This document shows, in pieces, positions 5,550-59,800 of a stretch of DNA of 64,000 nucleotides. The translations under genes were made by a program, and so were the position numbers. The DNA is taken from assembly GCA_003971905.1 (NCBI GenBank), contig RSEE01000014.1, positions 372,001 to 436,000 on the forward strand, read 5' to 3'. The DNA is from Moniliella sp. 'wahieum'. Lineage: Eukaryota. Below the pieces are notes generated by a model. The model saw nothing but the letters and a program-made list of their open reading frames with translations. It did no database searches and was not told where the DNA came from. Positions within the stretch are counted from its first letter, which is position 1. The number at the start of each line of letters is the position of its first letter.

Positions 5550-5817
5550 GGACCGGTGACGCGTGACGCGTGACGTAGCCTGCGACTTGACTGTGTTGAC
5601 TAGATGACTAGGTGGCTACCGACTACTGACTACTGACCGGTGAAGAGGACAAGTAATGCATGATGCACGCAACAAGCACATGTATGTGTTTCTTATTTTC
5701 GGAGCTCTCCGATCTCCGCCACCGCTTGGCCCAGAGGCTGATGCGCTGAAGCTTCAAGCTGACCCTCCCCCCAAGACCAGGGCGTCCGGTCCTGAGGCCT
5801 GAGGCTCAGGCCTGAGG
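5550..5817. repeat. Cluster of 7-bp TNA+palindromic-tetramer units
   Basis: GACCGG-TGACGCG-TGACGCG-TGACG (5551-5575), TGAAGCTTCAAGCT, TGAGGCC-TGAGGC-TCAGGCC-TGAGG (5793-5817). Confidence 0.8.
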
Positions 5818-6906
5818 TTCACCGGGTAGGGCACTGTCCATGTCAGCACGGGCTGGGCGGCGACCGTCACCAGGGTGGGTAGAATGTGGCTTGCTGGGAC
5901 GCAGAGCAGGCGGCACGCGCTGGCACAGCGCCAGAGGGAGCCTCAGACCCCTCGCTTGGCCGTGCAGGGTGCAGGCGTGTGTGACATGTGGCATGCCATG
6001 GAGGGTGTGTGATCAGGAGCATGCCTCCGGGGTGTTCTGTGGCGGACAGGCGCCGTGGCGTTGCGGTGGCAGTGTCTGCCTGTCTCGACCTGTCTCTGGC
6101 GTATCTGCCCGCCGCCCTCCGCCCTCCGACGCTGCCTGCCCCCGCAGTGCCCCAGCGTGCCCAGCCTGCGTAGTCCCTGTCCTCCGGATCGTGGGTTGCG
6201 CACTTTAGACGTCTTACGTACCAGGTGCGTTATTCCCGCACGCAGGCTTTGTCACGTGACTGGAGTGCGCCCCGGTGCTGGCCAGTGGCCGCCAGCTCAG
6301 ATATGGTCCTGTTGGCCCCACTCGCGCCCCTGCGCCCTTGACAAGTGGGTGACGCCATCGCGCCACTCTGCCTGCAAGCACTACCTCCTACTCCTGCCCG
6401 CTCCCCATGGCGGCCATTAACGTTTAACGTACTCTTCATTCCCAGACCTCCCCTCCCCTTTGCGTTGCTCGTGCCTGCCCCATCCCACCCATCCCATCCC
6501 AACACAATAACCATTCCCATCATCAGGCCGCGTGGTGCCCCCGTAAAAACATACCCTACTAGCAAGCCTCGATGTTTCTTCCGCAGTTTTGCTTTGCTTT
6601 TTTCATTCGCCTAACCTTCTTCAACCTTATTCACCCCGCCTACTCAGTATATCATGTTGCCATGACGACGACAGCTGTAGCAATGGTGGGCCTGACGTAA
6701 TGGTCCGTGCTTCCCCCAGGCCTCGCGGCCTCAAGCCTCACGCGCCATCGTCGACCCTAAATCGCATCTGCAGTCCCTAGTCACTATCTCTAGTCCAGTC
6801 ACTAGCCACCTTGCTCAGTACACAGACAACTGCCCCAAACACACACCCCTGGTCAATGACCGATGACCACCCCAGTAGAATTCTTCTACCAAATTGGACG
6901 CGGGCC

Positions 6907-7805
6907 TCACGAGCTTGTTCGTGGCTTGCGGAAAACGACAGTCGACGTCGCCGAGCCCGACTTTCCGCCCTGCCAATCGAACAAACCAAGTAGTCAGCAC
7001 CTACTTTCCCAATCCAGGTCCACACCCTTAGCCCAACATGCCCAAGCATCACGTACAAACGAAACGTTGGTGCTGGCACGACTGTCACGCACTCCAAGCC
7101 CGCCGGGAGGAGGTGAAGCGAGCGCGGAGCTCGGGGGCGGTAAAGTTGCAAGAGCACAACCACAGTCCCTCGTCGGCCAACAGGGTGGGTACCAGCTGCT
7201 CGTACCGCTGCACGGGCGTTTGGCCATCGGCATTGGCCTGGGACGAGAGCGCGATGGCATCGTACGTGCCCTTGTCCAGGACCAGGTCCCATCCTTCGTC
7301 TGGCTTGGCAGGATTGGCCTGGCCACGCAGCGCCGTGATTGATGCCGTATCAAGCACGTCGGCGGTGGCAAACCGGACTTGCTGCTCGGCCGCGCCTCGC
7401 TTTTCCGCCACGGCACGGGCGAGGGTGACACTGTCCTGGCAATAGTCCACGCCCAGCATCCGGGCTGGCGAGGGGCTGGCTCGGTCTCGGCCTGGACCAG
7501 GCCAAAGAGAACATTGCCGTTGCCCGTACCTAGGTCCAGAATGCTGAGCTGGTCAGGGGACGGGGCAAAGGATGAACCTTGGTATCCCCCGCGTCGTCGT
7601 TGTCATCCTCCTCGTCCTCGTCCTCGTCGATATTGGCAGCGCGCTCAAACCAACCTACCAGCCGGTCGACCGCCTCGTCGCCAAACCACACTTCGCCCTC
7701 GTCACCATGATCAAAGAAGTTGGCCGTTTCGCGCGCATAGACGCTGTCCCAGTGGGCCTTGGTGCCGAGACGCGATTCAGGGAGTGGGCTGCCGGGCCGC
7801 GACAT
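6907..7805 (-). CDS. EFM4: Protein-lysine N-methyltransferase Efm4/See1 (METTL10-like)
   Basis: S.LGTK.HWD.VY.RE..NF.D.GDEGEVWFG, LDLGTGNG, GVDY, LVLDKGTYDAI, CNFT..EL and terminal F.FGG.SGS. 3' intron GTACGT...CAG (~6971-7056). The true start may lie in an upstream exon. Confidence 0.88.
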
Positions 7806-8259
7806 TAGAGGGCGAGACGGACGCACAAGAAAAAAAGGAAATGCGGCACATGATACGCGACACCAAAATGAAATGCCGACTCCCATGCCTTCGGCGACGG
7901 AATGTGCTGGATCTGATGTGGGGCTTACGTCAGCTATTCTGCTTCCTTGCTCCGAGTACTGAAAAGAGCTATATAAGGAAGGGATACACAAGAAGAAAAG
8001 AAGGCGGAAAGCCCGCTACCTTTCTGTCCTCCCTCAAACCCCCCCCCCTACCTGCAGCACGAATACCAACCAGCATCAACACCACCGCCAAATCCACCCT
8101 CACGGTCAGAGATCACCTCCACAATTCTCAAACTAATAGTAGGTCCCTTCACCATAATAGCTCATGCTACCACGGTGTCATCTCCATCATCTACCGTTCC
8201 TCTTTCCTTTCCTCCATAAGCCCGACCCCAGTCACAACAACAGCCACTCTATGAGATTG

Positions 8260-11200
8260 ATAAGACACAGACTTTATTGAGTTTGAAGTTTGATGGCCTC
8301 TTTCCTTGCCATCTCCCACACGAAAATGCGCAAAACGCCAAGTCTTCTATATATATTATGCAGGTTTGCGAAGAAGAGGGCTACTGTACTCCTTACTATA
8401 ATACACCCCAGAAGATGGTGGGAAGGATCCAGAAAGATTTCCACAATAGAGTCTGACAAAAGGAGGTGAAGATAAATCTATTTCAAATAGAAGGCAGGAA
8501 CAGATACGCAGAAGTCGAAGTTGGGCCTACAAACAGGTATACGAGCAAGTCCTCCACAAGTATAATAGTATGTGTTGAGATGTCGAGGGTGATCGAGAGA
8601 GTTGGTGAAGGGGAAAGCTATACCACACAGGTACTTCTCACTGCGCTGGACCGGTGGGTCCCAAAGCAACATGGATTGGCCTTGCCCTTATAGGACCAAA
8701 GCGTGTAACAAAAGGGTCTAGAGTATCTCCCTAGAAACGCAATAGAAAGGGGTACGGAAACAATAAGTGTCACGTTAGGTTTGGTTTGAGGCATACCCGG
8801 AAACCAGTTTCAAATACGTTTGAGGCAGTTTGTATCTTGGCTCAACAATCGCAAAGTTTGGAGCAAGTGCGCTTATCAACAGTATACGCTGTTGGTGGTC
8901 TCCAGAAACAGGACACGATAGGTATCGATGTAATACAAAACAAGAGAAATAAACCAGAGGCCAAGATCATACTTGCCAGCAGTGTATGGCCAGCAAGAGT
9001 GGGAATCAAATCACAAGGGAGTATTATATTGAAGCCAGAGACTCTCCCCTTTCTGGCTCCATCAAGAAAGACGTGAGGGCGATTGTGGAAGAGCGGCCCA
9101 CTTGGGAGAGTGCACCACAAAAGATCGAGGCTTGGTGTCAATCTTCTCGTCCCTGCTAGTGCTCCCTTCTCGTTTCTCCCCAGGAGTCTGTGGGGCACGA
9201 TGACATTGAAGATGGATCCGAGGAGTTGAAAAACGTCGGCATATATGCACTCTCACCCTGTAATATAAAGTGCATGTGGCTGGCCTTCCAACTTATTGTG
9301 TTGAGGTGAATCTTCGCGAGCGAGACTGCAAGCCACTCCATCCTCCTAGGATGTGGAGATGGAAATTGTAACAACCGAACATGGGATGTCGCCCAGCCTT
9401 TATTGTACCGATGCGTCGATGGATGCAGAAGAACTGAAAAACATGAATGGTTCACTCGTGAGCGCAGCATGCAGTACCGACACCCGTGGATGCCAAAAAT
9501 TCACTTTGGGTGGGGGGAAACTACGTGTTCCACAGCGATTCTGACGGGTACAATCTGATGATTGGGGCGCCACACCGTACGTGGTCCTCTCGGTGCCTTC
9601 TCTCAAACCAATGAAACAATTCATCCACCAGCACTGTGGCGGTACCACTGACTGAGCTCTCGTTGGAATTTGTCGACATCAGATCCACTTGGTCACTGTT
9701 TGTCACCAAATTGACTGGTCCCTGATTTGTTCTGGACCCTGTTTTCCCCCTTTGACTGTGCTCCCTTTCTTCCTCCCTGTGACTCACCTCGCAAGGTCTC
9801 TTCTTTTCCGAGGCATATATACTTCGCCCTCTTTCCACTCGATGAATATGATCCTCATCCTTTCTCCCATCTCCATCTCCTCTATTAGCATTTCTTTTTC
9901 CCCATCGGACCGGGAGAGGAGACATGTACCACAATCCTGTGGCTATATTATTGAACAGAGGCAAAGATTCTGTCTGTTGGAACCGTGGAAGTGCGTACCA
10001 GAGTAGTGCAAGTAGATAGAGCTGCTCCCCTCGTGCATGTCTGCCTTCCATGGTTGTTTTTATGCGCACAGAAAGTCTGGCACCAAAAAGAAGTCTAGGG
10101 CAGGCTCCATAGGGGTGGGGGAGCAAACCGAGTGTGATGCAGAGCGACTTACACAGGCGTATGGATACCACAAAAGTTCTCAAAATCATTGTGGCTGGAG
10201 ACAATTGCTGCTTGGGGAGAGGGTGTCTATAGGTGACGCGACGCAGACACGCCTTTCATCGTTAAGGTCCAATGTGATCCCTGCCCCATTCACCAGAAAT
10301 AGTCACAATGCCAGTGATGAACATGGAGGGGGCATTCTGATTGTGTGGCCTTGTGCTTGGATGGCTGGATTGTTGCTCCGTATTAAACGTCAAGCTGTAG
10401 GTGGTCATTGAGTCCGAGGGACTTGTCGGAGGTTTGCCAACACGTATTGCTGCATACTAAGCCAGAAGCTGAACCACCTTTTGCAAGACTGGTGGAAACA
10501 TCATCGCCTGTGTTTTGTCACGCATGCGAGTATAACGTCTTTTCGGCATCATTAATCATTGCGATATTCACTTCTTCGACAGAGAGAAGAGACTAGAAGG
10601 GAAACTGACCGCAAATCGGTCCCACAAAAGGCGCGGTACTTTCCTCAGAGCTGGGAAAGAATAAGAGGGAGTGTCTATACGTTGAGCATTATGGTCCCCG
10701 ATCATGACTAGGGCCAACGTAAGAATACCTGCCACGGACGAGGCGGCGTGTGGGCGAGCCACGCGGATGCCCCACACACTCTCGCCTTGTCTCCCTTTCA
10801 TCTGTGACTGTCAACTATATACCCCCAGACGGGACTCACTCGCCGCCTTAGTTGACCACCCAACTATTCTTCCTTATGGCGTCTAAACCGGGCGTGTTCC
10901 TTTGAATTTGGGCTATGTGACTGTCACAGTCGGGGCTAAGCGAGAGGGAGACCAGAATCGGACTAGGCCAAGGGGTGTAGCAATCGTTCGTGGGGAAGAA
11001 GCAAGAACAGAGGACATTGTGCGAAGTGGAAGGAACAGGGAAGGAGTGAGACGCTCGAGACGAACAAATTGGAAATGGAAGCGAGATCAGCCAAACCATG
11101 ACAGTGACCTTCTAGCTGTATGGATTGAGTCCCTCTTTCATACGGCCAACTAAGGTAGTCCGTGCCCTTTACTTTTTGTACCTCTCTCTCCCTGCTTTTA

Positions 11201-11487
11201 TTCTGCTTCGAATCATTTGTACTTTTCAACCTAAGTTTTTGTATGTCAATGAGCTCTGATAGTTGCTAAGCCTCCTGTTCGGATCTGTGTGTATGCGTCC
11301 ACGGCGTTACCAAGTTGGGAAGCTCTCCCCTCAAATGCATTTTTCTAGTTCTTGGATGAGATGCCGGAGAAAGCCCACCCTTTTTGGGTTTGTCTCTTGC
11401 TTCTGGGATCTTTTGTTCTTTGCTGAGGAATGGGGCGTTTTCCCTTTCTAGGCTCTGTTCCCTTTTCCTGAGGGCTACAAACCTCAT
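8260..11487 (-). mobile_element. Highly degenerate non-LTR retrotransposon (L1/Tx1-type LINE) relic
   Basis: Ordered remnants on the - strand. Endonuclease: MRFVAL (11487), QET, GGLA, GVY, MIGDHNA (~10686-10705), NDH. RT: GPVNLVTNSD (~9700), degenerate QG, YADV (9243-9232), KIDTK, TLAGHTLLASMILAS (~8960-9005). Many stops and indels; ends approximate. Confidence 0.6.
10922..11103 (+). mobile_element. Solo LTR (182 bp), family A copy 1
   Basis: Begins TGTCA and ends TGACA. Flanked by a perfect 5-bp TSD GTGAC (10917-10921 and 11104-11108). Similar to the inverted copy at 17530-17719. Confidence 0.85.
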
Positions 11488-12470
11488 CGTTTTTTTTGCT
11501 TCCGTTTGCACTATATCTATTCCTTTATAGTTTCTCTTTGCTGCCAGCCTACACCTACGTGATCTCGCTGATTAGTGTCTTTTTTCCCCATATCATAATA
11601 GGAGGTCAACTTTTCTCTTCATCCTACCAGTGTGTCAGTCCAACTTCAACAGCAATAAGCCGTTCTTGCTCTTTCAGTACATGTGCCCATCAGTACATGC
11701 TTTCTCCATTCAGCATCCAGTGCCGTTGAAGTACATAGCATCCAGTCATCTATTCTTCCCTCCGGATCCCCCACTGCGAACCTCTGAGAGTCGAGTTGTT
11801 CCATATAGTGACTCCGTACAGGGAGTCGTTTTGGTTTATACTGTAGTCAGCCCATGACAATATATAACTTCCTTATAGCACACTTCAGTAGCTCTGTGTT
11901 GAAGACAAAGACAAAAAGGTCCAACCACAAAGCCGAGCCCTCCTTCATCCGCGTCGATCTCCAGCGTTTGTCCGCCGCTGCTTCCTCTCGTCCCTAAGCC
12001 CCAGAGGCTTCAGACGCGTTACTATTACGGCCCAAACCGGTGCAGACGCAGCCTTATTGCCAGTGCAGTCGCCCCACCAAAGGCCTCGCCTCGTCCCTAG
12101 CTTCGCTCGGATTCACCAACTAGCCCAAGTCCGAAACTACCTTGAGTCTTCCTTCCTCTCCTAAGGGATGACACCCACGAACCTGGGTGAGCCCCCTGGC
12201 GGGGCCCGCCCGTGACACTGTGATACATATATGCGAGAGAGGAAACACATCATGATGACGATGAAGACATATGTTGTGACATACTGGATTTGTTCCCTAC
12301 AAAAGGCCTTCAGCCGAGAGAGTCCCATGGGGGAGTTGAGCCATAGTAGGTGCAGCTCGTGCACGCTCCATGACATGCATGGCATCCCCTTCCCACACTT
12401 GTGGTCACCTCTGCTAGCTGGCAGCAGAGAAGCTGCTCCAGAACAAAATGGAACGATGTTGTTTCAAGAA

Positions 12471-12553
12471 GGCCTCTTGGCGCAGCGCGGTAGCGCGTGA
12501 GATTCCAGTTCTTGGTATCCTCAAGGTCATCCGTTCAAATCGGGTAGGGGTCA
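12471..12553 (+). tRNA. tRNA-Trp(CCA) with short intron
   Basis: Cloverleaf with GGCCTCT/AGGGGTC acceptor, GCGC D stem, CCA anticodon, 8-9 nt intron and ATCCG-TTCAAAT-CGGGT T arm. T6 terminator at 12561-12566. Confidence 0.9.
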
Positions 12554-12861
12554 AGTTACATTTTTTCGTTTGCCGCTTTTTGTCCTTCTTTTCGCAGGCA
12601 TGTGCCAATTTTTCGTGAAGACAGTAATTACCCCCCCTCTCCCTGCTGTGCATTTCCAAACTCGAGTATACTCAGCCTACTACATCCTTCCGTCAGAAGG
12701 TCGTCGCCTTCACCATCTCATATGACACAGAGCAGGCTGATATGTTGCAATGCATCACGACGACGTCAGTCGACATAGAGAACAGGATAGAACACTGAAA
12801 CGAGAGTAAAAAAGGATATGATTGATTCGAGAGAGCAGAGGGAAAGTGGGCGCTACCAAGG

Positions 12862-14439
12862 TTAACCGTACTTGTGTTGAACCGTGGTGGTCACACTAAC
12901 GCCATAACTTCGTTTTGGGACGCAGGAGCTTCTGTGGGGGGATAGTCCAGCCCATCGACGTGCGGGTCGCTTCAGGACCGGAAACCCCTTCCGCCTCAAA
13001 GGGGCGAGGGTCCATTTTAAGTTCCTCAAACGAGTCGGGGCCCTTGAGAAGGGTTGGTGGCCCATTTCCAAAGGGGAGAGCGCGGGATCTGGAGCCACGT
13101 CCGTGGCCCCCGTTGGTCTGGGAGGAAAGTAGTGTTCTTCCGTGGTTGCCGTTGGGGAACGAGCCGAACGTTCCATCCTTGCCAGGTGCAGAGGAGGCAG
13201 GTCGGGGCTTCGAGGTGCAGGTACGGAAGCCGATTGCGGGCCCATCGACCGTTTGTCACCACCTGTTGAACCCCCTTGACACCATCGGACGATCGACCAA
13301 ACGAATGACTGTTGGGAGTCTCCATTGGCATCAGTCCGGCACGGGGATGGCGGCCCGCGCGCTTCAGTGAAGTGACACAGCGTGGACCTGTTGTGGTAGT
13401 AGAGCGTGTGAGTAGATAAGTTCCGGCCATGTCGGGAGGAGAGGGGATCGGATGTGCCAGCAAAACATACCAATGACAAATCCAAGGAATGAGTGGATGC
13501 AGAGAATGAGGGTTGCCCTGAGGGCATTGTAATTTTCACGGGACCAGAGAGATAGAGGGACGCCCAGATGATGGCAAACAGTTCAATCGTCGCCGCAACA
13601 GTGGCGTACCTGACCACATCGGTAAGGAAACGACGCGTGATGAAGCTCAAGCGGCCAAGCTGCGAAGGGTGCTCTGTTGCTGTCCCCAGGTTCTTGGGGG
13701 GTTCCTTCCCTGGATCGATGGAACCGATTGCGCACGATCTGCGGCATGGGGACCGATGCCTGGGCGGAGCAACAGCTTGGAACGTGATGGTCACAACCGA
13801 CAAATCGAGGACCAAGCACACCGTAAATGGCGACGGGCAACTGTTTTTGTACCTGCGGTTGGCCACACACAAATCCAATCTTCATGTTGGGTACCGGCTG
13901 GGGCAGGGTTTCCAAATGAGTCGACCCGATAAACCACATCCACAATCCCAACACGATCGTATTGCCGCACCACAACAAATAAATGGATTTTCTTCTTGCC
14001 ACCGTTAACGCTGCCGCTCGCAACGTGAGCAAGCACTGGCAATGACGTTTCCGAGCGCAACACATGCGACATAGGCCCTGGCCGTGGCCGTGCAATTGTT
14101 GGTCCGCCGTCCAAAAGAAACCGTGAGAGCGCAACACGGGATGGTAAGGAGCCGCGCAATCAGGAGTCCAATTGCAGGGAAGTGGGGCCACGCCCTTCTC
14201 TCTTGCTCGTTGCCACCAGTGTTGTTCTCCTCGGTTGGTGGTTCCAAGAACGACAAGGGAGGGGGAAGGATAGACCGTCGGAATTCGGGGTAAAGCACGT
14301 ACTTGATGTCGGCGGGAAGCTGGGTCAGCAGCTCCCACACCAGGACACCAGTCATGACCAAAGACATCCACAGTACACCTGCATCATATGTCAACTCGTC
14401 CACCTGGGCCGGGGTGGGAGTCGGGATGGGGGTGGACAT
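12862..14439 (-). CDS. Multi-pass membrane protein, DUF6533-like basidiomycete family
   Basis: N-terminal GVLVWELLTQLPADIKYV (family-like .V.D...TL..E..Y.), several hydrophobic helices, FLTDVVRY, and a Pro/Ser-rich tail. Frameshifted; 3' end approximate. Confidence 0.6.
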
Positions 14440-15192
14440 AACGACGATGCGATGAGGGGAAAATGATGGGAAAGAGGCGACGAGGAGAGCACACACCCGG
14501 TGGGGGGCAGAGAAGTTAATGAGGGGGATGTGTAGGAGAGGTCAACAGACGCTGCCTGCAGCGAAAGAAGTGGACCAGAGGAGATGTGGTGGAGAAAGAA
14601 AAGTGAATGGGTCGGAAGAAGAAGCTTGCTAGGCAGAGGTGCAAGTGCAAGTCCTATTAAAGGGTGTGGGGCGGAAGGGGGCGGGGAATGAAAATGATTA
14701 ATGAGAGCAACAGTTGTGGGACTGAGCTTGCGTGTGCCTGAGGTCAGGCGGTCACACTTGGAGCTTGAAGCTTGACGTAGGTTGGGCTGGACGATGGGAA
14801 TACGCCGAGCTAGGAACTGCCCACACGGAATGAAAAGTGTTCGTTGTCTCTCGCCGCTTTTGCTCTGGCTGCGACGGTTGCCCAACACACCCGCATATGG
14901 GGACACATGATGGACTGGTGAGGCGTGACGTGAAGGGTGAGGGGGGCGGGCGGTAGGCATCTGGATGCAGCCGTATACATAGGATGGCCGGGCAGGGCAC
15001 AGCATGCTGTAGTAGAACGCGGTGGAGCCCCATGGTGGCAAATGATGCGAACGTGCGATGCTGAGCGGCTGAGCCAGGCAGAGCCGGACCCCATCGGCGC
15101 CCACGAGGTGCGGGGCAGAGGGCTGGACAGGGCAGAGGCGGTGGGCTTGGCTGGGACACTGGTAGCATGCCACGCCGTACTGAGGCGGCCTG

Positions 15193-15545
15193 TGACATGT
15201 GACATGTGAGGCCTGAGGCTTCCAGCTTCAAGCTTCAAGCTTCAAGCTTCAAGCTTATTCACTTCACCACTAGTCACCTAGTCACCTCAGCCTGAGCCGG
15301 AGGCCTGAGTTCTTGAAGCTCTGGAGGATCTGAGACACGACGCCTGAAACTTGTAATAGCCACTAGTCACTAGCACTAGTCACCGAGCGGGATGGTCAAT
15401 GGGATCTGGGATGGGACATGGCAGGTGACCGGTGATCGATGAGACTGAGATCTGAGATGGCTACGCGTGGGGCATGGGAGTGGTGTTGCGCTGATGTGGG
15501 GACCAACCGCCAGGAACAAGCACATCATAATGCATCATGCATCAC
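15193..15545. repeat. Cluster of 7-bp TNA+palindromic-tetramer units
   Basis: TGACATG x2-TGAGGCC (15193-15213), AGCTTCA x4+AGCTT (15224-15256), CACTAGT units, TGACCGG-TGATCGA-TGA (15426-15442), TGAGATC-TGA, TAATGCA-TCATGCA-TCA. Confidence 0.85.
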
Positions 15546-16759
15546 ACACACCCGCAACCGTCGGGTCGGGTGCATGTGGCAGCAACGCCACACGTCACCG
15601 CGTCACCGTCACCCACATTGATTTTGTTCCGGTGGGTGTATTGCAACCAATCAATTTAGTTCATTGAACACCGGTTCCGGCGATGTGTCCGATGAGGGTC
15701 GAGCTGGTCGATGGCCGATGGTCTATGCAAGTCTATGGTCGATTGTGGTGAGTTATAAGTAGGCGATGGTACTGGGGGAGGACGAGTGGGCCATTGGATT
15801 TGGCCACCCGATTAGTTTAGCCGGTCGTTTTGTCCCAGTTTAATTGCAAGCGGGGATACCGGTTACCCGGTTACGGTTACCGCCTATAAGGGTTAGGGTT
15901 AACTTTATCGGTTTTACCCTCTGGTATATACCGCGCAGTCATCTTGAGCCTGCGCGGGTCTGGTTACATGTTACACTACCGTAACCAATTTTATCTGTAC
16001 CAGCTGACAGATACCTGGTGTGTAGCATGCTTCCTGGGCGATTCCCTGCAGCCTGATCGAGGGCCTGGCGGAGGCGCCTGGGTCTGATTGGTGTTGTTCC
16101 GCACTTGTGTTGCCCCACTTCAAGCTTTTGACGCATGAGTTGCATGTGTTGCATGAGAAGATGAGAAGCTGTGGGGCGGATGCGCCCCGTACGACGTGGA
16201 ACGCATATACTAGCAAAACACTCTCCTGAGCAGTGCCGTGAGCGCGTGAGCATCGAACCAGACGATAAGAGCGGTGTTAAACGTCAACATGTTAATCAGT
16301 AACTAAGATCTTAAAGAAGGGGAAGACAGTGCTTTGCTATATGTGGGAGAACAACGGCGGCCGGGTAGCTACTGAGTGTGGGGCGAAGAGCAAAACCGCA
16401 ATGATATCGCGATACACGGGAGAGGATATGAAAAAGAGAATGACAAGAGGGGAGTGTTGGAGGTAATGATCCTGGTTTCCCAGCGACGTCCTAAGTGCAG
16501 TTATGCAATGGCAGAGAGAAGACAGGAGCTGGGTTGAACCCAGACTGAGGATCAGAAGAAGAAAAGAAGAAGGAGAAGAAAGGAGGCGGCACTAGGCCAG
16601 GGGATAGGGATACTGGTGTGGTGCCGGATGAGTAAGAAGGTCAGGAGGGCCGCGGAGGTGGCTGGCCCATAGGACCCTGGTCAACAGGAGGCTGCGTACG
16701 CATGGGGCTGCCCGCACCAACGTCCCAACAAAACGCGTAGGACCCTGGGTCCCTGGAGG

Positions 16760-16995
16760 CTTAAAGCTTAAAAAGCTTTTGAAGCATTGGCTTCGATCTT
16801 ATGTAAACGTTAAACGTTGAACCTACTTTTGGAGCTTTTTTAGCCAGTTAAGCGTACGTTAAGCACGTTAAAACCCCCATTTGAAGTTCAATTTAAAGCC
16901 ACGTTTTTAAGGCGTTTTGGAGCTTGTGCGATTCGAATATCCAAGCTTTTGATTCGAATATGAAAGCGTTAAGCTTGAAGCTTAGCTTGAAGCTG
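16760..16995. repeat. AT-richer cluster of the same heptamer grammar (AGCT/ACGT cores)
   Basis: TAAACGT-TAAACGT-TGA (16804-16820), TTAAGCT-TGAAGCT-TAGCT-TGAAGCT (~16969-16994), ATTCGAATAT x2. Confidence 0.7.
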
Positions 16996-17529
16996 TTGGT
17001 ACACGAGTAAAGAGAACAGAGGATGAAAAGTGATGAACCGAAGAACGATAAACTATCGATGAACTCGATGAACGTACAGGTGTTGACGTTGAGACCAGAG
17101 ATCTCATCTCATGCAGCATCATGCACATAATGAGAGTTGCGGTGCAATATAGATACCACAAGTGTAACACAAAGTGGCGGGGTTTACGTGCGGAGCGATC
17201 GAGATGAGCGAGGACGAGGAATCGGTCACTGGAGAACGCTCTCCCTACTGGATGCCGTTTGGTCCGATAACACCGGCATAGCTATGAGCTTCCTATGGGT
17301 TAAAGACATGTGCATAGGGAGGGAAGGTAATTAGGAAACAGTCAATGATATAATAGTGTTTCTCTTGTAAACTCATTCCAGTATAGTGTTGAGTAAATCG
17401 CATGCGGAAGAAATAAGGAAAAAGGAGGGGAACTGTGGCGCCACACTGGTGTATGTAGTGAGTGGTGCGTATGGGTAGTGCAAGATCGGGCCTTCCCGTT
17501 CATTCCTTCCAATATTCCTTCTTGGAGGG

Positions 17530-17719
17530 TGTCATAGCTTGGCTGATCCCGCTCCCATTTCCAATTTCTTCGTCCTGAGCGTCTCGCTCTTTCCCTGTTT
17601 CGTCTTCCACTTCGCACCATGTCCTCTGCTCTTGCTTTTTCTCCACGAACGATTGTTGCTATAACCCGTGGCCTATAGTCCCGATTCTGATCTCCCTCGC
17701 CTTAGCCCGTACTGTGACA
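17530..17719 (-). mobile_element. Solo LTR, family A copy 2 (inverted)
   Basis: TGTCA...TGACA termini. Reverse complement aligns by eye with 10922-11103. Flanks GAGGG/AAGGG form a 4/5 TSD. Confidence 0.8.
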
Positions 17720-17816
17720 AAGGGCAGGAATTTTCTCGAGTAGCTCATGTGCAATGCAATATACATGACACCCCGTCAATTGATCCTCTCTCTGGTCTTC
17801 TATTGCAGGAACCAAA

Positions 17817-17962
17817 TGTTGAGCCAGGTGGCTCGTGCTTATTTGGCCAATGTCCCTTCAGTTCCTCCTCAGGCCTAGGAGTTCCGTTGTTTTTTTCTCT
17901 TCCTGTTTTTCCTTGTTCCGCAGCTTAGCCCCTGGTGGCGACTCGCTGCTTGGTGTTCCTCA
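17817..17962 (+). mobile_element. LTR-like fragment, family B (copia-associated)
   Basis: Starts TGTTGAGCCA and shares long near-identical blocks (CAATGTCCCTTCAGTTCCTCCTCAGGCCT, GTTCCGCAGCTTAGCCCCTGGTGGCGAC) with 41009-41157. Confidence 0.75.
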
Positions 17963-23863: not shown

Positions 23864-24682
23864 ATGGCGGCGTTGCAACAAGGAACGGTTGAGGCAGCCA
23901 AGAAGCGTGCTCCCAAGCCGAAGGTCGCAGGCCTCACCTACACCTATACACCCGCCCCCGACGGAGCCGATTCGAACCTCCTCATCTTTCTTCATGGTTT
24001 GGGAGACAATGAGGCGGCCTTCACTCAGCTGGGACGACAACTCCAACGTGGCCCTAGTGGCACGGGCGGACCATTACCACAGATGGCTACGTTGGCCGTG
24101 CGGGGACTCGAACCGTTACCTTTCTTTCACGACGAGGGCAGGTTTCTTTGGTGGAAGGCTTTCTCCCCCTTAGGCGAAGGTATGTCCATTCTGCCCCCCG
24201 CCACATCTGTGCGACTGTGTTGCTAACCCAGAAACAGAGATGCCACCTGATCCACGAGCTGCGATTGATGCACTCCAGACGCTGCTTTCCCACCTGCGTG
24301 AATGCGGATGGAAAAACGAGAATGTGCACCTGTTTGGGTTCGCGCAAGGCGGGAGCATTGCTCTTGAACTGGCTATTGTTCTTGCCCGAGCAGGTGGGCC
24401 GCTGGGGAGTGTGGTGACTGTTGATGGTCCTCTGGTGCAGCATCCCACGTTTACTCCGCCGGTAACGACCCCGGTACTGTGCTTCCACCGCGGCGCGGCG
24501 CCCCGCTCGCCAGGGCATTCTCAAACGTTACGAACCTTCGTGCTGCCGCTACGGATGGGCCAGCGATGCCGCGCGCGAGGGAGGGCGAGTGGGACGGAAT
24601 CATTCGCTGGTGGGCAGGGACGGCGCGATGGCGGAATCGGTCGGCTATGGAGTTGACAGGGGAGGTAGTGCCGTTGCAGTAA
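23864..24682 (+). CDS. Phospholipase/carboxylesterase-like alpha/beta hydrolase (Abhydrolase_2), probably inactive
   Basis: LLIFLHGLGD and HLFGFAQGG. GT-AG intron 24180-24237 with a GCTAAC branch point. Confidence 0.85.
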
Positions 24683-25804: not shown

Positions 25805-25805
25805 G

Positions 25806-42973: not shown

Positions 42974-46214
<3,241 letters not shown>

Positions 46215-49640: not shown

Positions 49641-50447
49641 GGCATGCGATCCTTGCCGCCATCGCCAGCAGGCATAATGTGCATGACACATGAGATGAAT
49701 GATGCCCGGCCTCCCAGGTGAGAATATGTGGCTCTTCTTCGACTACTGGCCGTAATGCATCGCGCTGAATCAACGGTTGCTTTGCTGGGTGGAGCAATGC
49801 CGCATCGGCCGAGGTGGTTCTGGTGTATATAGTAGTGGAGCGATGCAGAAGACCTCGGTGTTGGGATGCAGTCAATAAGAAGCGATCCAACCCAAACCAG
49901 CAAGTAATGTTGACAAGTATCAAGTGCATGCCAAGCCGAGCGAACGAGGGCAAGAAAAGATGTGGTTTGGGTGGTGCACTTTAGGGAAGAAGAGGATATA
50001 TGGTGGTATCACACGTTGGGCGTGGCGCGCGTTACAGTATGCATTGCCAGTAGTGGCAGTAGTGGCCTGTAGCGTGTAGTGGCTCGTGCACAGTGTGGCA
50101 TGAACATTTCAGTTCCCCAAAAGATCGCTATCGGGAGCAAGGGGCTAAGCCTGAGCTGGCTGATTGATGCAATTGATGATTGAGGATCGATGAGATGAGA
50201 GGCTGAGATCCGAGGTCCAGACTCAGCCGCTAATAAGGCGGGCGCTGATACAAGCGCAAGCATGCATGAATCACGCACACCGCGCTCAGATCTGACAGCA
50301 GATCTAAAGCGCATGGTTCCCAACGGCAGCCACCATCACCACACCACCACCTCTCCCCCATCTCTCCTTCCTCTTCCTTCACCGCACGGTCATTTAACAC
50401 CTCATTGGATGACCAAGGGTGAACAACCGTGAGTTAAAGAAGCCATC

Positions 50448-52007
50448 ATGGGTTCTCCCCTCAACTTCCTGCGCGCAGCAGCCGTTCGACGTCTATATCT
50501 GCCGCCACACGTCGTCGACCTCTGGACCCGCGAAGTTGCGCGTCCACGCTACACACTCCTCATCCTTATTCTCCTCAGTGCTTACCTTTCACCATCCGCC
50601 TCCGACTATTCCACCAAGGGGCCTGGACAAGAAACAGCAACACAAACAACCGCACCCCCAGCCGTCCTGTCTCCTCCACCACTCTGCCTACCGATTTGGA
50701 CGCTTCTGATGCATCTGGGTCCCTCCGTGCCTCACTCTATGCCCTGATTGGAGTGGGTGTCACGGGCTCTGCAGTAACCATTGTGCAGCTTCTCGGACTT
50801 TGGGGGCTGCGCCTTTTGGCTGTAACCGTTGATCATTGGCTGGATTCTATGCCGTTCGTGCCTCGCAGTTACTCCCTTCATTTGAAGCTCCGGATTTGGG
50901 TCATCGCTCTCGCCCTAAGTGCTGCTGCGGTAGCCACGGCACAGCCTTTTATGGCCAGTGCTACTGCCTCGCTCGTGTTGCATGTCTGTCATTGGGGTGG
51001 CCTTAACCTGCATGATCCCCTCGCCCTCACCTCACCTGGTCCCTTGAAGCTAATCGTCTGCCTCGATTCCTTAGCCGCTGTGGCGAGCGCATTTACCATT
51101 CTCCTTGGATTGAGCCATTTCTTTCCACCCAAGTCACATGTCCGAGCCATCTCATGCTCCTTAGCCCGTTCGGCATTTATGGCGTCGATCAAAGCGTTTC
51201 TTCTGGGCCCCAAGAATGCATCCACAGCTCGAGCGCAGCAACGGTACCAGCGCCGTCTCGTCCGCCATCGGAGGCAAGTCCGAGCTATGGGCCTGCAAGC
51301 TTTCCCTGCGCCACCTCCACCAGTGTTTCGGGAAGCTTCGCCTCGTCCAACATCTCGAGTTGGGACGGTCCCCAGTGGACCCCCCGAAATGGCTGTGCCG
51401 GCTGTTAAGCCGCCTCGTCAACGGGGGCACAGTGTGAGGCTTGATCTTGCCTGGGTAATGGAGGTGGCGCTGGCATTACTCAACGTGGGTTGGCAGCAGT
51501 GCAGTACACTGTCATCCTGGCTTTACTTCCACGCGTAATCATCATCACTCTTGTGGTCGGCCTGGCGCTACATCAACAGGCCACCACCTTTATTGATACC
51601 TGGTCCGAGGCCCGGGGGGCAGCCGAGTGCCTGGAATATGTGGTTCGTCGCTGGCCTGGACCGAAGGAGGGACAGGATTCGATGGAGGAGCAAGTTTGTG
51701 CTATGTGTTTTGAGCCCGTTGTCACGCATGTTGCGGTGCCCGAGGGGGAAAAGGCGACAGAGGAGGATCTCTCCAGTGCCCATTCAGCACGTAAGGGGTC
51801 GCATGTTTGGATTGCGGGCACTGGCTCCACCCAACATGCCTTGTGACCTGGCTGACTAACCAGGGCGTTTGTCCTGTTTGTCATATGCCTCTCCAGCTTG
51901 CCCGCCAAGTCAGCGTGACTTCGCCCGTGGCATCCACCCATCCGAGGTGGGATTTTCTCCCAACGGCCCCGACGTGCCCACAGCGGCCTGAGCGAGAGAT
52001 GTGTTGA
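50448..52007 (+). CDS. Membrane protein with C-terminal RING-H2 finger (E3 ligase-like)
   Basis: Multiple hydrophobic helices followed by CAMCFE...DCGHWLHPTCLVTWL...CPVCH. Frameshifted. Confidence 0.75.
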
Positions 52008-54104: not shown

Positions 54105-54365
54105 GGAGTAACATGTAACAGCGGATCATGAACGTGTGGCGCGTGGCGCGTACAGGGTAGGGATGCCGACGGTGTGGGGACCAAGGGGGCGGAATGGGAA
54201 TGAAACATCAGGCCTCAGGCGCGCTCAGCCGCTCAGGCACTCGGGCTGACGCTGCGGATTGAGTTCCTGAGTACTCCTCAGTACGGAGTCGGACCTTAGC
54301 CAGGCCTGGAGCCAGCGCTTGTGACATGTGGCCTGTGAGGCGTGGCGTCACGCGTGACATGTGGC
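54105..54365. repeat. Heptamer cluster upstream of the BCP gene
   Basis: TAACATG-TAA, TCAGGCC-TCA, TGAGTAC, TCACGCG-TGACATG (54348-54361). Confidence 0.7.
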
Positions 54366-54773: not shown

Positions 54774-57401
54774 ATGCCGTCCCACCGCATCAAGCACTTC
54801 CCAATGGTCAAAGAGCATGGCTCACCACTCAGCTCACCACCCTGGTTTCCCTCCCTGTTTCCACCTCCTCCTCCAACCCCGTTTTGCGCCAGCCGGCGCC
54901 CGACTTCCGCATGCTTGATCACCACGGCCAAGTCCACACCCTGCACTCCTATATCTCCCTGGGCAAGCCAGTGGTCCTCTTCTTCTACCCGCTCGGGCTC
55001 GCCCTTTTGTACCAAGCAGCTCGTGCCCTTCGCTCTATGCAGCTCGTCGCGCCTTCCTTCTCCTTCCGCCGTCACCCTCATCGGTGTTAACAAGACTCGC
55101 CCACCCGCATCGCCCAGTTTGTCCAGCAGCACAGCATTTCCTATCCGGTCCTCTCCGATGTCGACCGCACAGTACACAACGCCTACGGCGTAGGCACCAT
55201 CCTTATGGGCCTCATGAACCGTAAGTCACTACTCACTAGTCACTAGTCCTTCCCCTCCACCGGCACCCTGACCGACTGACCCTTCATGTTTCTGATTTGC
55301 CTTTGTTTGTTGCACCTGGAACGTTCAGAGCGCACCACCTTTGTGATTGACACACGGGGCATTGTTCGAGGCTCCGCAGAGGGTACATTCAATTACAAAG
55401 GTCACATCAAATACGTCGAGCGTTGGCTAGCTCGCATCAATGACGAAGAAGCATTCCTGTCTCAAGGTGGCCCAGCGGCCGAGTTGATCCAGCAGCGCTT
55501 TTTCGACACAGCCCCAAACCGTCCCGTCTCACCTCCGAGCCTCAGGATACACCATCAGAACCCGAGGGTTCACCCTTACCGGCAGCCGTCTACGCCGCCT
55601 CCCGGGTCGCCACTAGCTCAGGTCTCATTCGCCCGTCCCAGGCTGTGGTCAATGCTCTCCGCACCGACGTCTCAAATGAAAAACTGAACAGCTCCGGCCC
55701 TCTATCCAAGTTGGCTCCGTACCTGCGCTCACACACTCTTTACTCTCTCCGGAGCCGCCTGTGTACGAGAACGTGGACGAGAGATCCAATTCCACCTCCG
55801 TCGCTCCCTGGAACAATTCATCCTCCACCAGTCGTATCAGCCCCTCATCCAGTGAATGGCAAACTCACTACCAGAGTCAACCGCAGCGCAATTCCTATCC
55901 CGATCTGAATGCCCCATCACTTCTCCATGGCATGGGCTTAGAACCGGCAAGCCCCGAGGCGGTATATGGTAGCCCATTGCAGCAGACTCCATCAGCCCGA
56001 TCAAGCGGATGGGCCCCAAGCATCACGAGCCTCTTGGACGCAGACGCGCCCTCGCGTCCTCCAGCTGATGACTCGATCTCTGAACCGGATTCGCCCTTGG
56101 ACAAAAACCCTCCCATCGCGCGGCGGACTCGGCCATCCAACGTCGTCTCCACAAGAGGATATGAGGAGAACGAAAGTGCTTCCGACTCGGAATGGTCGAT
56201 CGCCAATGATTTTCCCAGCCCTGTACGTGATTCTGTTGCGGAAGACGCACCGATACCTCCAAAGGCACAGTCCATGGCTTTGGGCAGATATCCGTCACCC
56301 CACTTCTCTCTTCATACCTCTCGGTCGGACTCGAACCTACGCCGGTCCTCTAAGGGGCACAGTCGCAATGGCCCATGTATCGCCGGCTCCAGTACGCGAG
56401 CCAGCTTCAACTTGCCTTTACCTTACTCAGCCACGAAGGGGGGTGGAGAGGCGCACGAGAGTGTGCAATCCCCCAACCGGGTTCGGGTTCACCAAGGCCT
56501 TACAGAGCCTCCTGTTCCTTCACTTCCATCTGGTTTACCTCTTATACCTGAGCAACATGGCTTGACTACACCTGATCCGAGCAATGCGAATGGTCTTGTG
56601 CGCGTGGGTTCTACATCTATACCAACCGTCCCCCTCCGATTATGTCGGGCTTCAAACAACTTGGTCCCCATGCTGATTCAGTCAGTTCCGATTATCGCCC
56701 TTCTTCGTCACTCAGCGTTCCCAATCCCACTGGGTGCACAGGTGACCTTACCGTACCCGAGGACTCCGGAATGGTCCCAGCCATCGCTGCTTCTAACTTA
56801 TCGGTAATCGCACCGAGAAAACGCACTTCTGCCCCTGTACCTATGGCCCCTCCTCACCCCCAGCGCAGGAATCCCGCCCCAACCATTTAACCCCTACCTC
56901 TGTAGCGGCAAGTTCGTACCTTGAGCAACGCAGTTCTGGTGAAGTCACTCCTTCATTTCCCCCCTCGTTTTGCATACCCCGCTTCCATCTGAACGCGGTA
57001 GTGTCAACCAAGATGGCACGTATCCCCGCTCAGCCCCGTCGCGGCTACGTTCCGTTAAGTCCTACAACTCCTGGCCACGGAAACGCTTACGCCGGAACAC
57101 TTCCGCACCCGCGTGCGCTCCCGTCCCACTCGTAACAAAGGTATTAGTGCAACTCCTTCCTTCTCTACCGTGCCTGGATACCAGCATACAGTACTGCCGC
57201 CTCGGGAAACCAGGTCCCTCCCCCAACGCGGGGGTGGGTGCGCGTTGGGTACCCCCTTCCCGTGGCGGCTCCACGCCTTGGCCCTCCAACATTAGACGCC
57301 CCTTATTTTCCTTGGGCCTGGAGCATGCCCACTCGTCCCCCAACTTACTGGACTCGGGAAAACCGATTCGGGCTGCTCCTCTCGACAAACGACGGAAGTG
57401 A
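54774..57401 (+). CDS. BCP/PrxQ-type peroxiredoxin domain followed by a long Ser/Pro-rich extension
   Basis: QPAPDF, KPVVLFFYP, SPFCTKQ, YPVLSD....V..AYGV, intron 55221-55328, RTTFVID..GIVR, then low-complexity ORFs to 57401. Confidence 0.7.
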
Positions 57402-57869
57402 GGCCCACGTCGCTGCGTTACCCCCACTATTCTATAGAACCTGGGCATGATTCTTATATATGAGTTCCAAGATTCGTGTGTGTCTTCCTGTGCTGGCCTG
57501 TGGGTATATTGTGGGTACAGATATATTACCTCGTCCTTCCTGCCACGGTTTCCCGTCAACCAATCGTCAACGCATTCATGTGCGAGCGACAGCGGAGATG
57601 GCGTTGATATTGGCACGTCGACGAGATGGAAAACACAGTGAATGCGGTAAGCGTCAGACGAATGTGAAAATGGAGACGTTGTAGAACGCGGATGTACCCT
57701 TCTCCCTCCGGTAATCGGGAGAGCGGTGATACCAGTGATAGGTGGCAATATCGGAGAAGAAAGGATGTGGGATGGACTAAAAAGCTGTGGAGGCATGTCT
57801 CCTCCGCATGTCCACACTACAGCGTTGGCCAAACCCCATCACACTTCCGCTGTTTCTCCTAGAGGGAGA

Positions 57870-59800
57870 TCATCGATCAGTACCTAGATACTCAGTACAT
57901 CAGTAAGTACTGACTCACGAAAGAGGCACTTGTCACTCGTACCGATCACTAGGATCACGCGTCACTAGTCACTAGTCACTAGTCACTAGTCACTAGTCAC
58001 TAGTCACTTACAATCATTTTTTGTCGGAGGAACATGTGCAGCATCATGCATCACACATACGTGGGGAAAAGACGGCACCGCTAAACGCCAGAAAAAGGGA
58101 AGTGGAGACCTAAGCAACGGAGGACACGGTATATACTGCACACTCACAGTTAGTACTTAGTAGTCCTTGCATGCTGAGGGCGCTAAGGAATAGACGTCCA
58201 AAATGATTGCGTTCAGTTTGAACGCGTTCAATGTCAGCCACGGACAGGAGTTATCTAGTTATTGAACTCAAAATTAGCATCATGCAAAAGAGGAATACTT
58301 CGCAGTATCTTCCCGGTGCGACAAGAGTGCAATGGCCCCCGGAGTACCAATAACCGGATGTGACCTGTGTTGACAGCTTGGTCCGGCTATGTACGTGTAG
58401 CTCTCGCAGGCCACACGAAATGATCGAGATCGATCACGATCACCGAGTCTGATGGATTCAGGTGCGGCCGGTGGCCGGTGGAGGTGGGGGGAGAGAGGCA
58501 AGAAGCTCGGCCGAAAAGGGGCACAGGCACTGCAAATAAATAACCGTCGGCACGGAGATGCAGGGCCCCGATCACACAGGCACAGATAGTTCAGTGGCAC
58601 AGACACACACAGCCACCCACACGAAAGAGTGTCTCTGCGACATGTGGAGAGATGGCCGTACAATCTGCTTCTCCCAAAAATGACTTCGCGATTGGTACTC
58701 CCGAATACTCAGTACTCCGAACTCTTCACAGTTCAGAGTCTGAATACTCATCGAACTCATAATAGCTTCAAGCTCCTTCAAAAACGTTTCAGGTCCTTTT
58801 CAGGATCGGGGGATCGGTACTCAGTGACTATAGTGACTAGTGACTAGTGGCAAATGAAGAGCCGCGAACAGTTCCGTGACTTGTTACAACCAGATTGGCT
58901 GAGACTTGAGAAGACTTTTGAGAGTCTCTAAGATCTAAGATCTAACGTGGCATATGCCATGTGATGCGTGACACCTTAATATGGCCCTAGGCCTTAGATC
59001 TTAGATCTTATACAGCGCCTAAAGCCGTATTGAACAGTGCGCGTCACACACTGAGCAACTGCTGCCCAGGGTAACACTCGCCCCGTTCCATGTTGTGACG
59101 AGGCTTGGGGCCAGTGTATTTCCAAGCTACTGCACTGGCGGGGCCTTTCAAAGTGTGTGGGGCCCGCAAGCTTTTCAAGCTTCAGCGCGCTCAGCGCTTC
59201 AGCACTCCAATTTCGTCGACAACATTATACTGACACAAAAGAGTATAGTTTCTGACTTGGTAGTAGATAGTCGTACCCCCGTAGGATGGAGGCTGTAACC
59301 GTTGGCCAAACAGGGATGTTGGGGCGAGAACCACGCGGTTATATCTCATGCGTGTGGATAGTCGCGCCCAAAACCGGGGCCACTGTCACATATAGCTGCC
59401 TCAGGCATCACTAGCATCACTTAGTAGTACTGGCAATTGCAATGTGTGGTCTTGCGAAAATGGAAATGACGCCTCCCGGGTACGGCCTTTTGGTGGTGAA
59501 TGGAGAGTTGTGTGTGCAGTGCTTTTTGGCGACTGCGGAGTGTGTTGCAGTGTGCATGTTTTGCACATACTACGGACGAGAAGAGTCACTATTATAGTAC
59601 GATACTCACAGTCACTCTGTATATTGTCACTAAAAGGGGTTTCATCGCCACGAAACGCTCTTTGCAGGTCCTGTATTCATCGATGTGGACGTTCAACGCG
59701 TTCACCACACTTATTGCAAATTAACACTATTCCATGTGGCACATTGGGTCTCAGGCTGAGGCCTGAGGCTCAGGCCCCAGGCCTGACCTCAAGCCTCTCA
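57870..59800. repeat. Largest heptamer cluster, upstream of the aquaglyceroporin
   Basis: TCACGCG-(TCACTAG)x6 (57955-58003), TGACTAG x2 (~58834), TAAGATC x2 (58929-58942), TTAGATC x2 (58994-59007), TCAAGCT-TCA, TGAGGCC-TGAGGC-TCAGGCC (59757-59776). Confidence 0.85.

Follow-up and report, generated by a model that had tools for sequence, protein, structure and literature searches.

Seven-base-pair palindromic repeats centred on T-N-A in a basidiomycete genome window: candidate excision footprints of a hairpin-type transposon

Background

In one mode of cut-and-paste transposition, represented according to the available part of PMC5499845 by hAT, Transib and MULE elements and by RAG, hairpins are formed on the flanking DNA, opened by host enzymes and end-joined, and “footprints” are left at the site. 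Transposons with 7-bp duplications are found in the Basidiomycota, where they include hAT7 in the Pucciniales and Kyakuja in Laccaria (PMC12730594, in the portion available). The present work concerns a repeat pattern in a 64-kb stretch of DNA from Moniliella sp. 'wahieum' (assembly GCA_003971905.1, contig RSEE01000014.1, positions 372,001 to 436,000; “the window”, in whose own coordinates all positions below are given), which consists of heptamers that join the triplet T-N-A to a self-complementary tetramer. The pattern was proposed in a model-generated annotation made from the letters alone (the “first-pass annotation”). The heptamers are described here in detail, and it is tentatively suggested that they are the scars of a transposon of this hairpin-forming kind.

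Results

Enrichment of the heptamer pattern

Occurrences of T.A-N4-T.A were counted across the window and compared with 200 dinucleotide-preserving shuffles. If N4 is palindromic and the two triplets carry the same N, 59 matches are observed against 2.3±1.6 expected (shuffle maximum 8), and there are lesser counts for complementary N (9 against 2.3) and for other combinations of N (8 against 3.6). Decamers with a non-palindromic N4 are not enriched (115 against approximately 130). The 76 palindromic matches group into 58 separate chains. The first-pass annotation had named this comparison of palindromic with non-palindromic spacers as the check on its rule, and the rule holds; it holds as well in all ten of the intergenic clusters that had been named.

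The excess is confined to particular triplets and to a particular period. Among all words of the form w3-pal4-w3 it is seen only for TCA (26), TGA (22), TAA (6) and TTA (5). Perfect period-7 tandems of at least two copies have a palindromic rotation in 21 of 39 cases (about 11% expected), and 19 of these 21 odd palindromes are centred on T-N-A. Period-5 tandems with a palindromic rotation show no excess (27 of 96, with about 31% expected), and the corresponding fractions are 7 of 238 at period 4, 2 of 77 at period 6, 0 of 13 at period 8 and 0 of 9 at period 9. The pattern of T-N-A plus a 4-bp palindrome is therefore confirmed as real.

The copies are tandem, as in an ordinary slippage microsatellite, but the unit of such a microsatellite would follow no rule, and here 21 of 39 units obey the odd-palindrome rule. 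The expectation that repeat finders would see only unrelated microsatellites needs correction, since a repeat finder does call many of these arrays. An artefact of assembly, sequencing or cloning might be suspected from the resemblance of the hexamers to restriction-site palindromes; this is extremely improbable, because dozens of different units occur at 58 places, in unique sequence and confined to non-coding DNA, with no recurring adaptor-like sequence.

Anatomy of the elementary unit

Each unit is a heptamer of the form a-b-T-N-A-b'-a', with N as the centre of its palindrome. All period-7 tracts in the window were listed without bias. Non-palindromic tracts fall steadily in number as their length increases from 9 to 14 nt (2229, 630, 167, 47, 26 and 6), and the TNA-centred palindromic tracts of the same lengths number 54, 34, 13, 18, 10 and 7. 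Twelve of the 18 TNA tracts of 12 nt start with “ab” and end at the A of T-N-A. From the 12-nt bump and the phase of these tracts it follows that the smallest event is a 12-nt tract, abTNA + b'a' + abTNA, which represents a net gain of 7 bp. Among tracts of at least 12 nt, palindromic centres other than T-N-A occur at chance level. Longer arrays mostly measure 12+7k nt to within one base (18, 19 three times, 20 and 48 nt); two arrays of 30 and 33 nt, with frayed ends, fit this series less well.

The two strands together contain 88 words of the form abTNA-nn-abTNA. In 67 of them, where about 5.5 would be expected, the spacer nn is the reverse complement of ab, and in only one is it the reverse complement of NA alone. 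The 5-mer ab-TNA is repeated at a distance of 7 bp at 49 distinct loci, compared to 4.9±2.1 in shuffles. A spacer that is the reverse complement of ab is what would be expected of P-nucleotides from an opened hairpin, and the units thus display both the direct repeat and the P-nucleotide-like spacer of a hairpin-type excision footprint. The earlier suggestion that a hairpin or template-switch process writes symmetric heptamers came close to this anatomy.

The palindrome and the duplication are not separable in the data. Odd palindromes classified by their centre are in excess for TNA (256 observed against 194 expected) and not for ANT (203 against 209), CNG (299 against 336) or GNC (273 against 335). 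The whole of the TNA excess is accounted for by the 90 palindromes that lie inside period-7 tracts, and the 166 isolated ones show no enrichment over the 194±13 expected in total. It follows from this lack of enrichment among the isolated ones that a single step makes both the palindrome and the duplication.

At 15191-15219 a single TGA is common to a left-type array (TGTGA CA TGTGA CA TGTGA), derived from the TG upstream of the TGA, and a right-type unit (TGAGG CC TGAGG), derived from the GG downstream of it. This shared triplet implies that the process is two-fold symmetric about T-N-A. In the complementary-N decamers the flanking dinucleotide matches the core in 6 of 9 cases. Spacers of six palindromic bases (TNA-pal6-TNA) are in mild excess (5 against 0.8), and periods of 8 to 9 bp likewise.

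Several variant structures were also noted. Units with 8- or 9-bp periods lie at 17056-17073, 18781-18796 and 24886-24905 (TCGATGAAC x2, GTCACATG x2 and GCGCTGAG x2, respectively), and in these, too, the repeated word is followed by two bases that are the reverse complement of the two with which it begins. There are two 14-bp tandems, GTCAAATGCCAAAT x3.9 at 28786-28839 and AGCCATCATGCATC x3.2 at 19687-19731. In the second a TCA-TGCA-TCA unit has been duplicated, so that heptamer units can be carried along in larger duplications.

Usage of core tetramers and of N

Nearly every palindromic tetramer is used. The counts of the individual cores are AGCT (10), CGCG, TGCA and GATC (7 each), GGCC and ACGT (6 each), TTAA, CATG, TCGA and CTAG (3 each), CCGG and GTAC (2 each), and AATT and TATA (1 each). 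The strict 10-mers therefore contain 14 of the 16 possible kinds, with ATAT and GCGC missing; a GCGC core occurs only in looser forms with an 8-bp period. The first-pass annotation, which counted 12 of 16 and saw no arrays with all-AT cores, needs correction here, in that all-AT cores (TTAA, AATT and TATA) do occur and strict GCGC does not. Counted by chain, N is C in 18, G in 16, A in 5 and T in 4, and the window contains 1035 TCA, 908 TGA, 378 TAA and 369 TTA triplets; the use of N is proportional to this background. No consistent relation was found across the chains between the orientation of N and the direction of the neighbouring gene.

These figures bear on a footprint of the PIF/Harbinger type (PHIS, NuwaII-like), in which a 3-bp TNA would be duplicated and the tetramer would consist of two bases from each inverted terminal repeat. 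NuwaII duplicates TNA in the context C-TNA-G and is present in two basidiomycetes, as stated in the accessible part of PMC4482050. A 4-bp palindrome would follow of itself if each inverted terminus left two bases, and T-N-A is indeed directly repeated with the same N. Such an element would nevertheless leave a fixed tetramer, and none of the 14 found is dominant; the GG..CC termini described in that part of PMC4482050 would give GGCC, which is the core of only 6 of the 58 chains. The base before the T of T-N-A is uniform rather than biased towards C. Tracts of 10+7k nt with unrelated flanks would be predicted, whereas the tract lengths have their mode at 12 nt, with a flank that matches the core. 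The PIF/Harbinger element studied in PMC2836001 excised precisely in 109 of 110 events, according to the portion of that source available, and no such element is present in the window. This origin is accordingly considered very unlikely: the TNA duplication is there, and the C/G flanks and the fixed GG..CC tetramer are not.

Restriction to the lineage

A control set was assembled from 80 XRN loci of other eukaryotes, mostly fungi, which were obtained from a metagenome scan with the XRN exon of the window (639,520 bases, identity at most 63%). The window contains 67 of the diagnostic 12-mers, and the whole control set of 640 kb contains 5. In the controls, same-N decamers have a palindromic core in 49 cases against 624 non-palindromic ones, or 7.3% compared to 6.25% expected, and the density of palindromic same-N decamers is 0.077 per kb, against 0.92 per kb in the window. 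The heptamer pattern is lineage-specific.

Folding of the arrays

Single strands of the arrays are predicted to fold with T-N-A triloops, stems formed by the palindromic tetramer (pal4) and single N.N mismatches. The z-scores of the folds range from -3.1 to -4.9 for three single arrays and are -1.6 for a fourth and -7.6 for an inverted pair at 58927-59010. In this pair (TCTAAGA)x2.7 and (TCTTAGA)x2.6, with complementary N, are separated by 47 bp, and the predicted 84-nt hairpin has an energy of -20.1 kcal/mol. Similar inverted pairs are formed by 57961-58008 with 58831-58849, about 820 bp apart, and by 14762-14775 with 15224-15256, about 450 bp apart.

The folding raises the possibility that the arrays are hairpin-driven microsatellites that owe nothing to a transposon. 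No tandem unit smaller than a 4-bp palindrome with a 3-nt loop allows neighbouring copies to pair as a hairpin. Pairing of this kind would stabilize slipped strands and let the arrays expand, and the first 12-nt tract would be the product of some replication or repair error at T-N-A, by fold-back or by template switching. The arrays do fold in this way, the distribution of copy numbers is roughly geometric with a long tail, and the flips of N and the 6-nt units in the GGCC arrays resemble hairpin-mediated switching; the window, moreover, has yielded no transposon. The restriction of the loops to T-N-A, to the exclusion of ANT, CNG and GNC, is left unexplained by this account, as are the formation by a polymerase of the zero-loop junction between b'a' and ab and the absence of the pattern from the fungal and other eukaryotic control DNA (640 kb), to which the same physics applies. 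No comparable excess is seen for even palindromic periods of 4, 6 or 8, or for pal2+3 or pal6+3 units, either. Microsatellite expansion of this kind is thus rather unlikely to be the whole explanation, although it has more to recommend it than the other alternatives. Polymerase fold-back on the T-N-A loop and flap template switching were considered as specific routes and dropped, since both leave the specificity for T-N-A unexplained.

Position relative to genes

Thirty-five of the 59 same-N matches lie in the 20% of the window that has no open reading frame (ORF) of at least 100 amino acids. Cluster D (Table 1) is located just upstream of the bZIP ORF, Cluster E lies 230-390 bp upstream of the start codon of the XRN/Rat1 gene, and Cluster F is at the start of the LisH-domain ORF, which runs from 42686 onward. 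Cluster G is situated between the 3' end of OST3 and an ORF at 50438-51535 (+), and the largest clusters (14.7-19.8 kb and 57.9-59.8 kb) adjoin ORFs that lack validation. The convergent gap between the 3' ends of the bZIP and C2H2 genes (26715-29201) contains no unit, the 3' end of the XRN gene has one, at 32127, and there are no clusters at 8-12.8 kb, at 45.7-47.6 kb or in the divergent gap between the MutY-like and hydrolase genes. The claim of a 5' position for nearly every cluster is therefore borne out for the bZIP, XRN and LisH genes; the other clusters border unvalidated ORFs, and several non-coding stretches are empty. A 5'-of-gene bias is likely but not established.

Such a distribution would also be produced by cis-regulatory arrays under selection, in which promoters would present a dimeric or general factor with T-N-A triplets, or with A-NNNN-T hexamers, at intervals of 7 bp; this is the other explanation that had been offered at first, as half-site arrays for a promoter or chromatin factor. 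In its favour it can be said that bZIP factors have TGA and TTA as half-sites, that ACGCGT is similar to the MluI cell-cycle box, that clusters lie upstream of the bZIP, XRN and LisH genes, and that the same heptamer occasionally recurs at a spacing of 8-9 bp. A dimeric factor would be expected to require inverted half-sites around a fixed core and to leave isolated sites enriched. Instead, almost any palindromic tetramer is used, the triplets are direct rather than inverted repeats (59 same-N against 9 complementary-N), and isolated sites are not enriched (166 against 194). Seven base pairs is no helical repeat, and several promoters, as well as long non-coding stretches, are devoid of units. 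The boundaries of the units are also phase-locked to the flanking sequence, and fixed start and end phases are expected of an insertion event rather than of a selected site. Selected regulatory arrays are for these reasons a quite improbable source of the pattern, and that part of the first-pass annotation is not sustained.

Discussion

Excision footprints as a candidate origin

The explanation that we favour, tentatively and as something short of probable, is that the heptamers are scars of mutation, left as footprints by the excision of a cut-and-paste DNA transposon that makes a 7-bp duplication centred on T-N-A and forms hairpins on its flanks. Insertion into a target ab-TNA-cd would create the donor site abTNAcd-element-abTNAcd. 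On excision both flanks would be capped as hairpins, and opening of these at least 2 nt from the tip would leave each flank with a palindromic 3' overhang, which is cd-d'c' for the left flank and b'a'-ab for the right. If end joining then trimmed one overhang and kept the other, the product would be either abTNA-b'a'-abTNAcd or abTNAcd-d'c'-TNAcd. Either product would have a net gain of 7 bp, the same N in both triplets, a 12-nt period-7 tract, and a new 4-bp palindrome dictated by the local flank, so that any palindrome would be possible. The combination of one trimmed and one kept overhang would restore 14 bp whatever the distance p at which the hairpin is opened. Opening at p = 2 or 3 nt would yield an identical product, because T and A are complementary, and opening at 4-5 nt would generate a minor class with complementary N. 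Artemis opens hairpins about 2 nt off the tip.

Arrays could then grow in steps of 7 bp. Since a footprint recreates the target, re-insertion into it can lengthen an array; replication slippage, aided by the hairpins that the arrays form through their pal4 stems and T-N-A triloops, would be a second route. The clustering near gene starts may reflect insertion into open chromatin together with the tolerance of non-coding DNA. Elements of the hAT, P and Mutator groups favour nucleosome-free 5' regions, and a preference of this kind would explain the clustering.

The excision scheme would account for the period of 7, the T-N-A centre, the identity of N, the free choice of tetramer, the 12-nt tract and its phase, the shared TGA at 15191-15219, and the minority with complementary N, in which the match of flank and core in 6 of 9 decamers is as the model predicts.

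A number of points weigh against the scheme. No cognate element was found in the window: no pair of terminal inverted repeats with a 3-bp TNA duplication was found in its 64 kb (one match was marginal), the 16 matches in it to elements with terminal inverted repeats and an nnTNAnn duplication are all self-matches of arrays or chance, and an inverted-repeat listing of the window contains only arrays pairing with each other. No transposase domain was found among 164 ORFs, the sole match to a mobile element being a relic of a copia reverse transcriptase (RT). The best relative found has 63-65% XRN identity, and the PMC12730594 supplement gives consensus sequences for hAT7 and Kyakuja without their duplications. 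The spectrum of footprints is, in addition, unusually uniform for end joining. The form with both overhangs kept (+11) has no occurrence in the window (0.1 expected), the form with both trimmed (TNATNA) is barely enriched (50 against 37.8±6.3), the variant with a 1-nt P-nucleotide is not enriched (7 of 44), and neither are plain 7-bp duplications with TNA in the window. A +6 form with an odd-palindromic spacer (22 against 9.7) consists mostly of (TCA)n and is not clearly enriched. The density of up to about 5 events per kb would also imply a very high past activity.

The geometry of the hairpin presents a further difficulty. The hAT element Hermes forms a hairpin that is offset by one base. 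By our own derivation, this offset would give odd rather than even junction palindromes, or a +6 product with a 7-bp duplication, so that a symmetric hairpin is required. A Hermes-type hairpin with an 8-bp or a 7-bp duplication was accordingly dropped from consideration, as was a 5-bp asymmetric duplication, which lacks the two-fold symmetry. It is because of the failure to find an element in the window, the narrow spectrum of footprints and the need for a symmetric hairpin that the footprint explanation is put forward with reserve.

More broadly, it is possible, if on the doubtful side, that a deep-branching basidiomycete lineage has, or recently had, a highly active and as yet undescribed transposon of the hairpin type, or a domesticated transposase, with a 7-bp TNA-centred target and repeated visits to gene-proximal DNA. 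Its footprints would then constitute a genome-wide class of hairpin-prone, quasi-palindromic microsatellites of 7 bp, which would introduce stop codons into all three reading frames, give promoters and leaders structured DNA or RNA, and could in this way supply regulatory variation. A bolder version would dispense with the transposon and posit a new repair pathway that writes heptamers at T-N-A.

If the footprint explanation is right, the arrays would be a fossil record of an unseen transposon, from which its target (nnTNAnn), its 7-bp duplication, its flank hairpins opened at least 2 nt from the tip and its landing zones could be read, and excision scars could seed a whole class of microsatellites near genes. 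If there is no transposon, the pattern would point instead to an unknown site-specific insertion process. The rule ab-TNA, b'a', ab-TNA is simple enough to be searched for in any genome.

Gene content and other features of the window

The G+C content of the window is 56.6%, and it carries eukaryotic genes with several introns. Genes were called from a Pfam scan of the 164 ORFs (Table 1); a codon-usage map of the window gave too weak a signal for gene models. In protein searches the ORF at 12865-13881 (-) had four weak matches only, and the ORF at 57065-57838 (-) had no Atlas match.

Table 1. Positions of heptamer clusters and of annotated genes in the window
Feature	Coordinates	Strand	Content or basis
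Cluster A	5556-5821		(TGACGCG)x2.9 at 5556-5575; TGA-CCGG-TGA at 5634; TGA-AGCT-TCA at 5747; CCTGAGG/CCTCAGG array with N flips at 5791-5821
Cluster B (densest)	14693-15545		shared-TGA array at 15191-15219; (TCAAGCT)x4.7 at 15224-15256; TCACTAG units at 15264-15383; TGA-CCGG-TGA-TCGA-TGA at 15424-15442; TGAGATC at 15445-15458; TCATGCA at 15528-15544
Scattered units, 4-kb ORF-poor stretch	15963-19768		15963; 16304; 16759-16820; 16969-16994; 17056-17073 (9-bp period); 18126; 18165; 18781-18839; 18884-18922; 19082; 19690-19729; 19757
Cluster D	24831-25025		CGTGA CG CGTGA; 8-bp-period GCGCTGAG x2; (TGATGCA)x4.3 at 24913-24942; GATCA TC GATCA at 25014
Cluster E	35833-35995		TCGATGA x2; TGA-CGCG-TGA; TCA-CGCG-TCA; TCA-TTAA-TCA
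Cluster F	42605-42695		TGA-ACGT-TCA twice; TGAAGCT x2
Cluster G	50165-50310		mostly single 7-mers; TCA-GATC-TGA
Cluster H	54108-54365		TAA-CATG-TAA; TCA-GGCC-TCA; TGAGTAC/TCAGTAC; TCA-CGCG-TGA-CATG
Isolated array	55224-55248		(AGTCACT)x3.6
Cluster J	57868-59790		longest array, (TCACTAG)x6.9, at 57961-58008 after a TCACGCG unit; inverted partner (CTAGTGA)x2.7 at 58831-58849; (TCTAAGA)x2.7 at 58927-58945 and (TCTTAGA)x2.6 at 58993-59010 (84-nt hairpin); TCAGCGC-type run at 59174-59200; CCTGAGG/CCTCAGG array at 59746-59790
Ferric reductase	2-1991	+	Pfam
MutY-like glycosylase	21892-23274	-	Pfam
Alpha/beta hydrolase	24174-24653	+	Pfam
bZIP factor	25078-26715	+	Pfam
C2H2 zinc-finger protein	29201-30427	-	Pfam
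XRN/Rat1	about 32130-35604	-	Pfam; start codon (about 35604) placed by tblastn
DUF4202 gene		+	Pfam
Copia reverse-transcriptase relic	41379-41810		Pfam
LisH-domain protein with long hexamer repeat	42686-45629	+	Pfam
Pet100			Pfam
OST3	3' end 49637		Pfam
Aquaporin			Pfam

The best named fungal matches of the XRN exon in a protein search are all basidiomycetes, drawn from all three subphyla and at most 65% identical, and the Atlas agrees with this placement. These matches make the host a basidiomycete that is not Ustilago-like and has no close annotated relative. The Ustilago comparison made in the first-pass annotation is not supported, since the genes of the host have several introns and its XRN is no closer than this to any named basidiomycete, Ustilago included.

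Several other features were recorded. A (GCTCAA/GCTCAG)n hexamer microsatellite of about 113 copies, with an 18-bp super-period, occupies 44433-45104 and was masked in the repeat statistics; it lies inside an ORF of 628 amino acids (43746-45629) that continues the LisH-domain gene. A tandem repeat of 32-33 bp with 3-4 copies (CGTGGGAGGGGTG.TTTTCTGA.TCACGAGGC) is located at 36402-36528, downstream of the XRN promoter cluster. At 40781-40878 (-), beside the copia RT relic, Rfam calls a tRNA of 98 nt that probably contains an intron and that ARAGORN misses; at 12471-12553 (+) ARAGORN calls a tRNA-Trp that Rfam misses. The 4.8-kb stretch at 8000-12800 is poor in ORFs, has a lower G+C content (0.46-0.53), contains a single heptamer unit (10548) and has no Pfam match; it may represent a repeat that has decayed, or else a long intron.

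Comparison with known systems

Full-text literature searches yielded no description of the ab-TNA/b'a'/ab-TNA grammar, and the palindromic microsatellites of Fusarium mitochondria, as presented in the available part of PMC7218506, are unrelated to the heptamers of the window. Bacterial heptamer repeats (STRR and others) resemble them in their 7-bp units, their intergenic location and their hairpin potential. In the bacterial case, however, a genome contains one or a few unit sequences, and it is inverted blocks of non-palindromic units that pair, whereas each unit of the window is itself a quasi-palindrome that differs from locus to locus.

NuwaII and other PIF/Harbinger (PHIS) elements, with their TNA or TWA duplications, share with the window a two-fold symmetric T-N-A target centre and a presence in basidiomycetes. 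They differ in their 3-bp duplication, C..G flanks and GG termini (PMC4482050) and in their precise excision (PMC2836001), and the tract lengths and core diversity of the window do not fit them. Basidiomycete DNA transposons with 7-bp duplications, namely hAT7 of the Pucciniales and Kyakuja/KDZ of Laccaria (PMC12730594, as far as available), would share its duplication length, and the superfamily of hAT7 excises via flank hairpins; no homologue was found in the window, whose host has an XRN identity of at most 65% to any named basidiomycete.

A further likeness is to the footprints of hairpin transposons (hAT elements such as Ac/Ds, Tam3 and Hermes, Transib, and MULEs) and to the P-nucleotides of V(D)J joints. 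In these, and on the footprint reading also in the window, two copies of the duplication remain and the junction bases are an inverted copy of the neighbouring flank, a palindromic junction being the mark of an opened hairpin (PMC5499845, in the part available). The window would be unlike them in its 7-bp TNA-centred duplication, in the dominance of one type of footprint and in the absence of a visible element, and its footprints would have accumulated, at about 1 per kb, in tandem arrays that reach 7 units. Its junction palindrome is even, whereas the geometry of Hermes is odd. The heptamers would thus be of a known kind, that of excision footprints, and what is new would be their accumulation into a class of microsatellites, with a real chance that a new element or process lies behind it.

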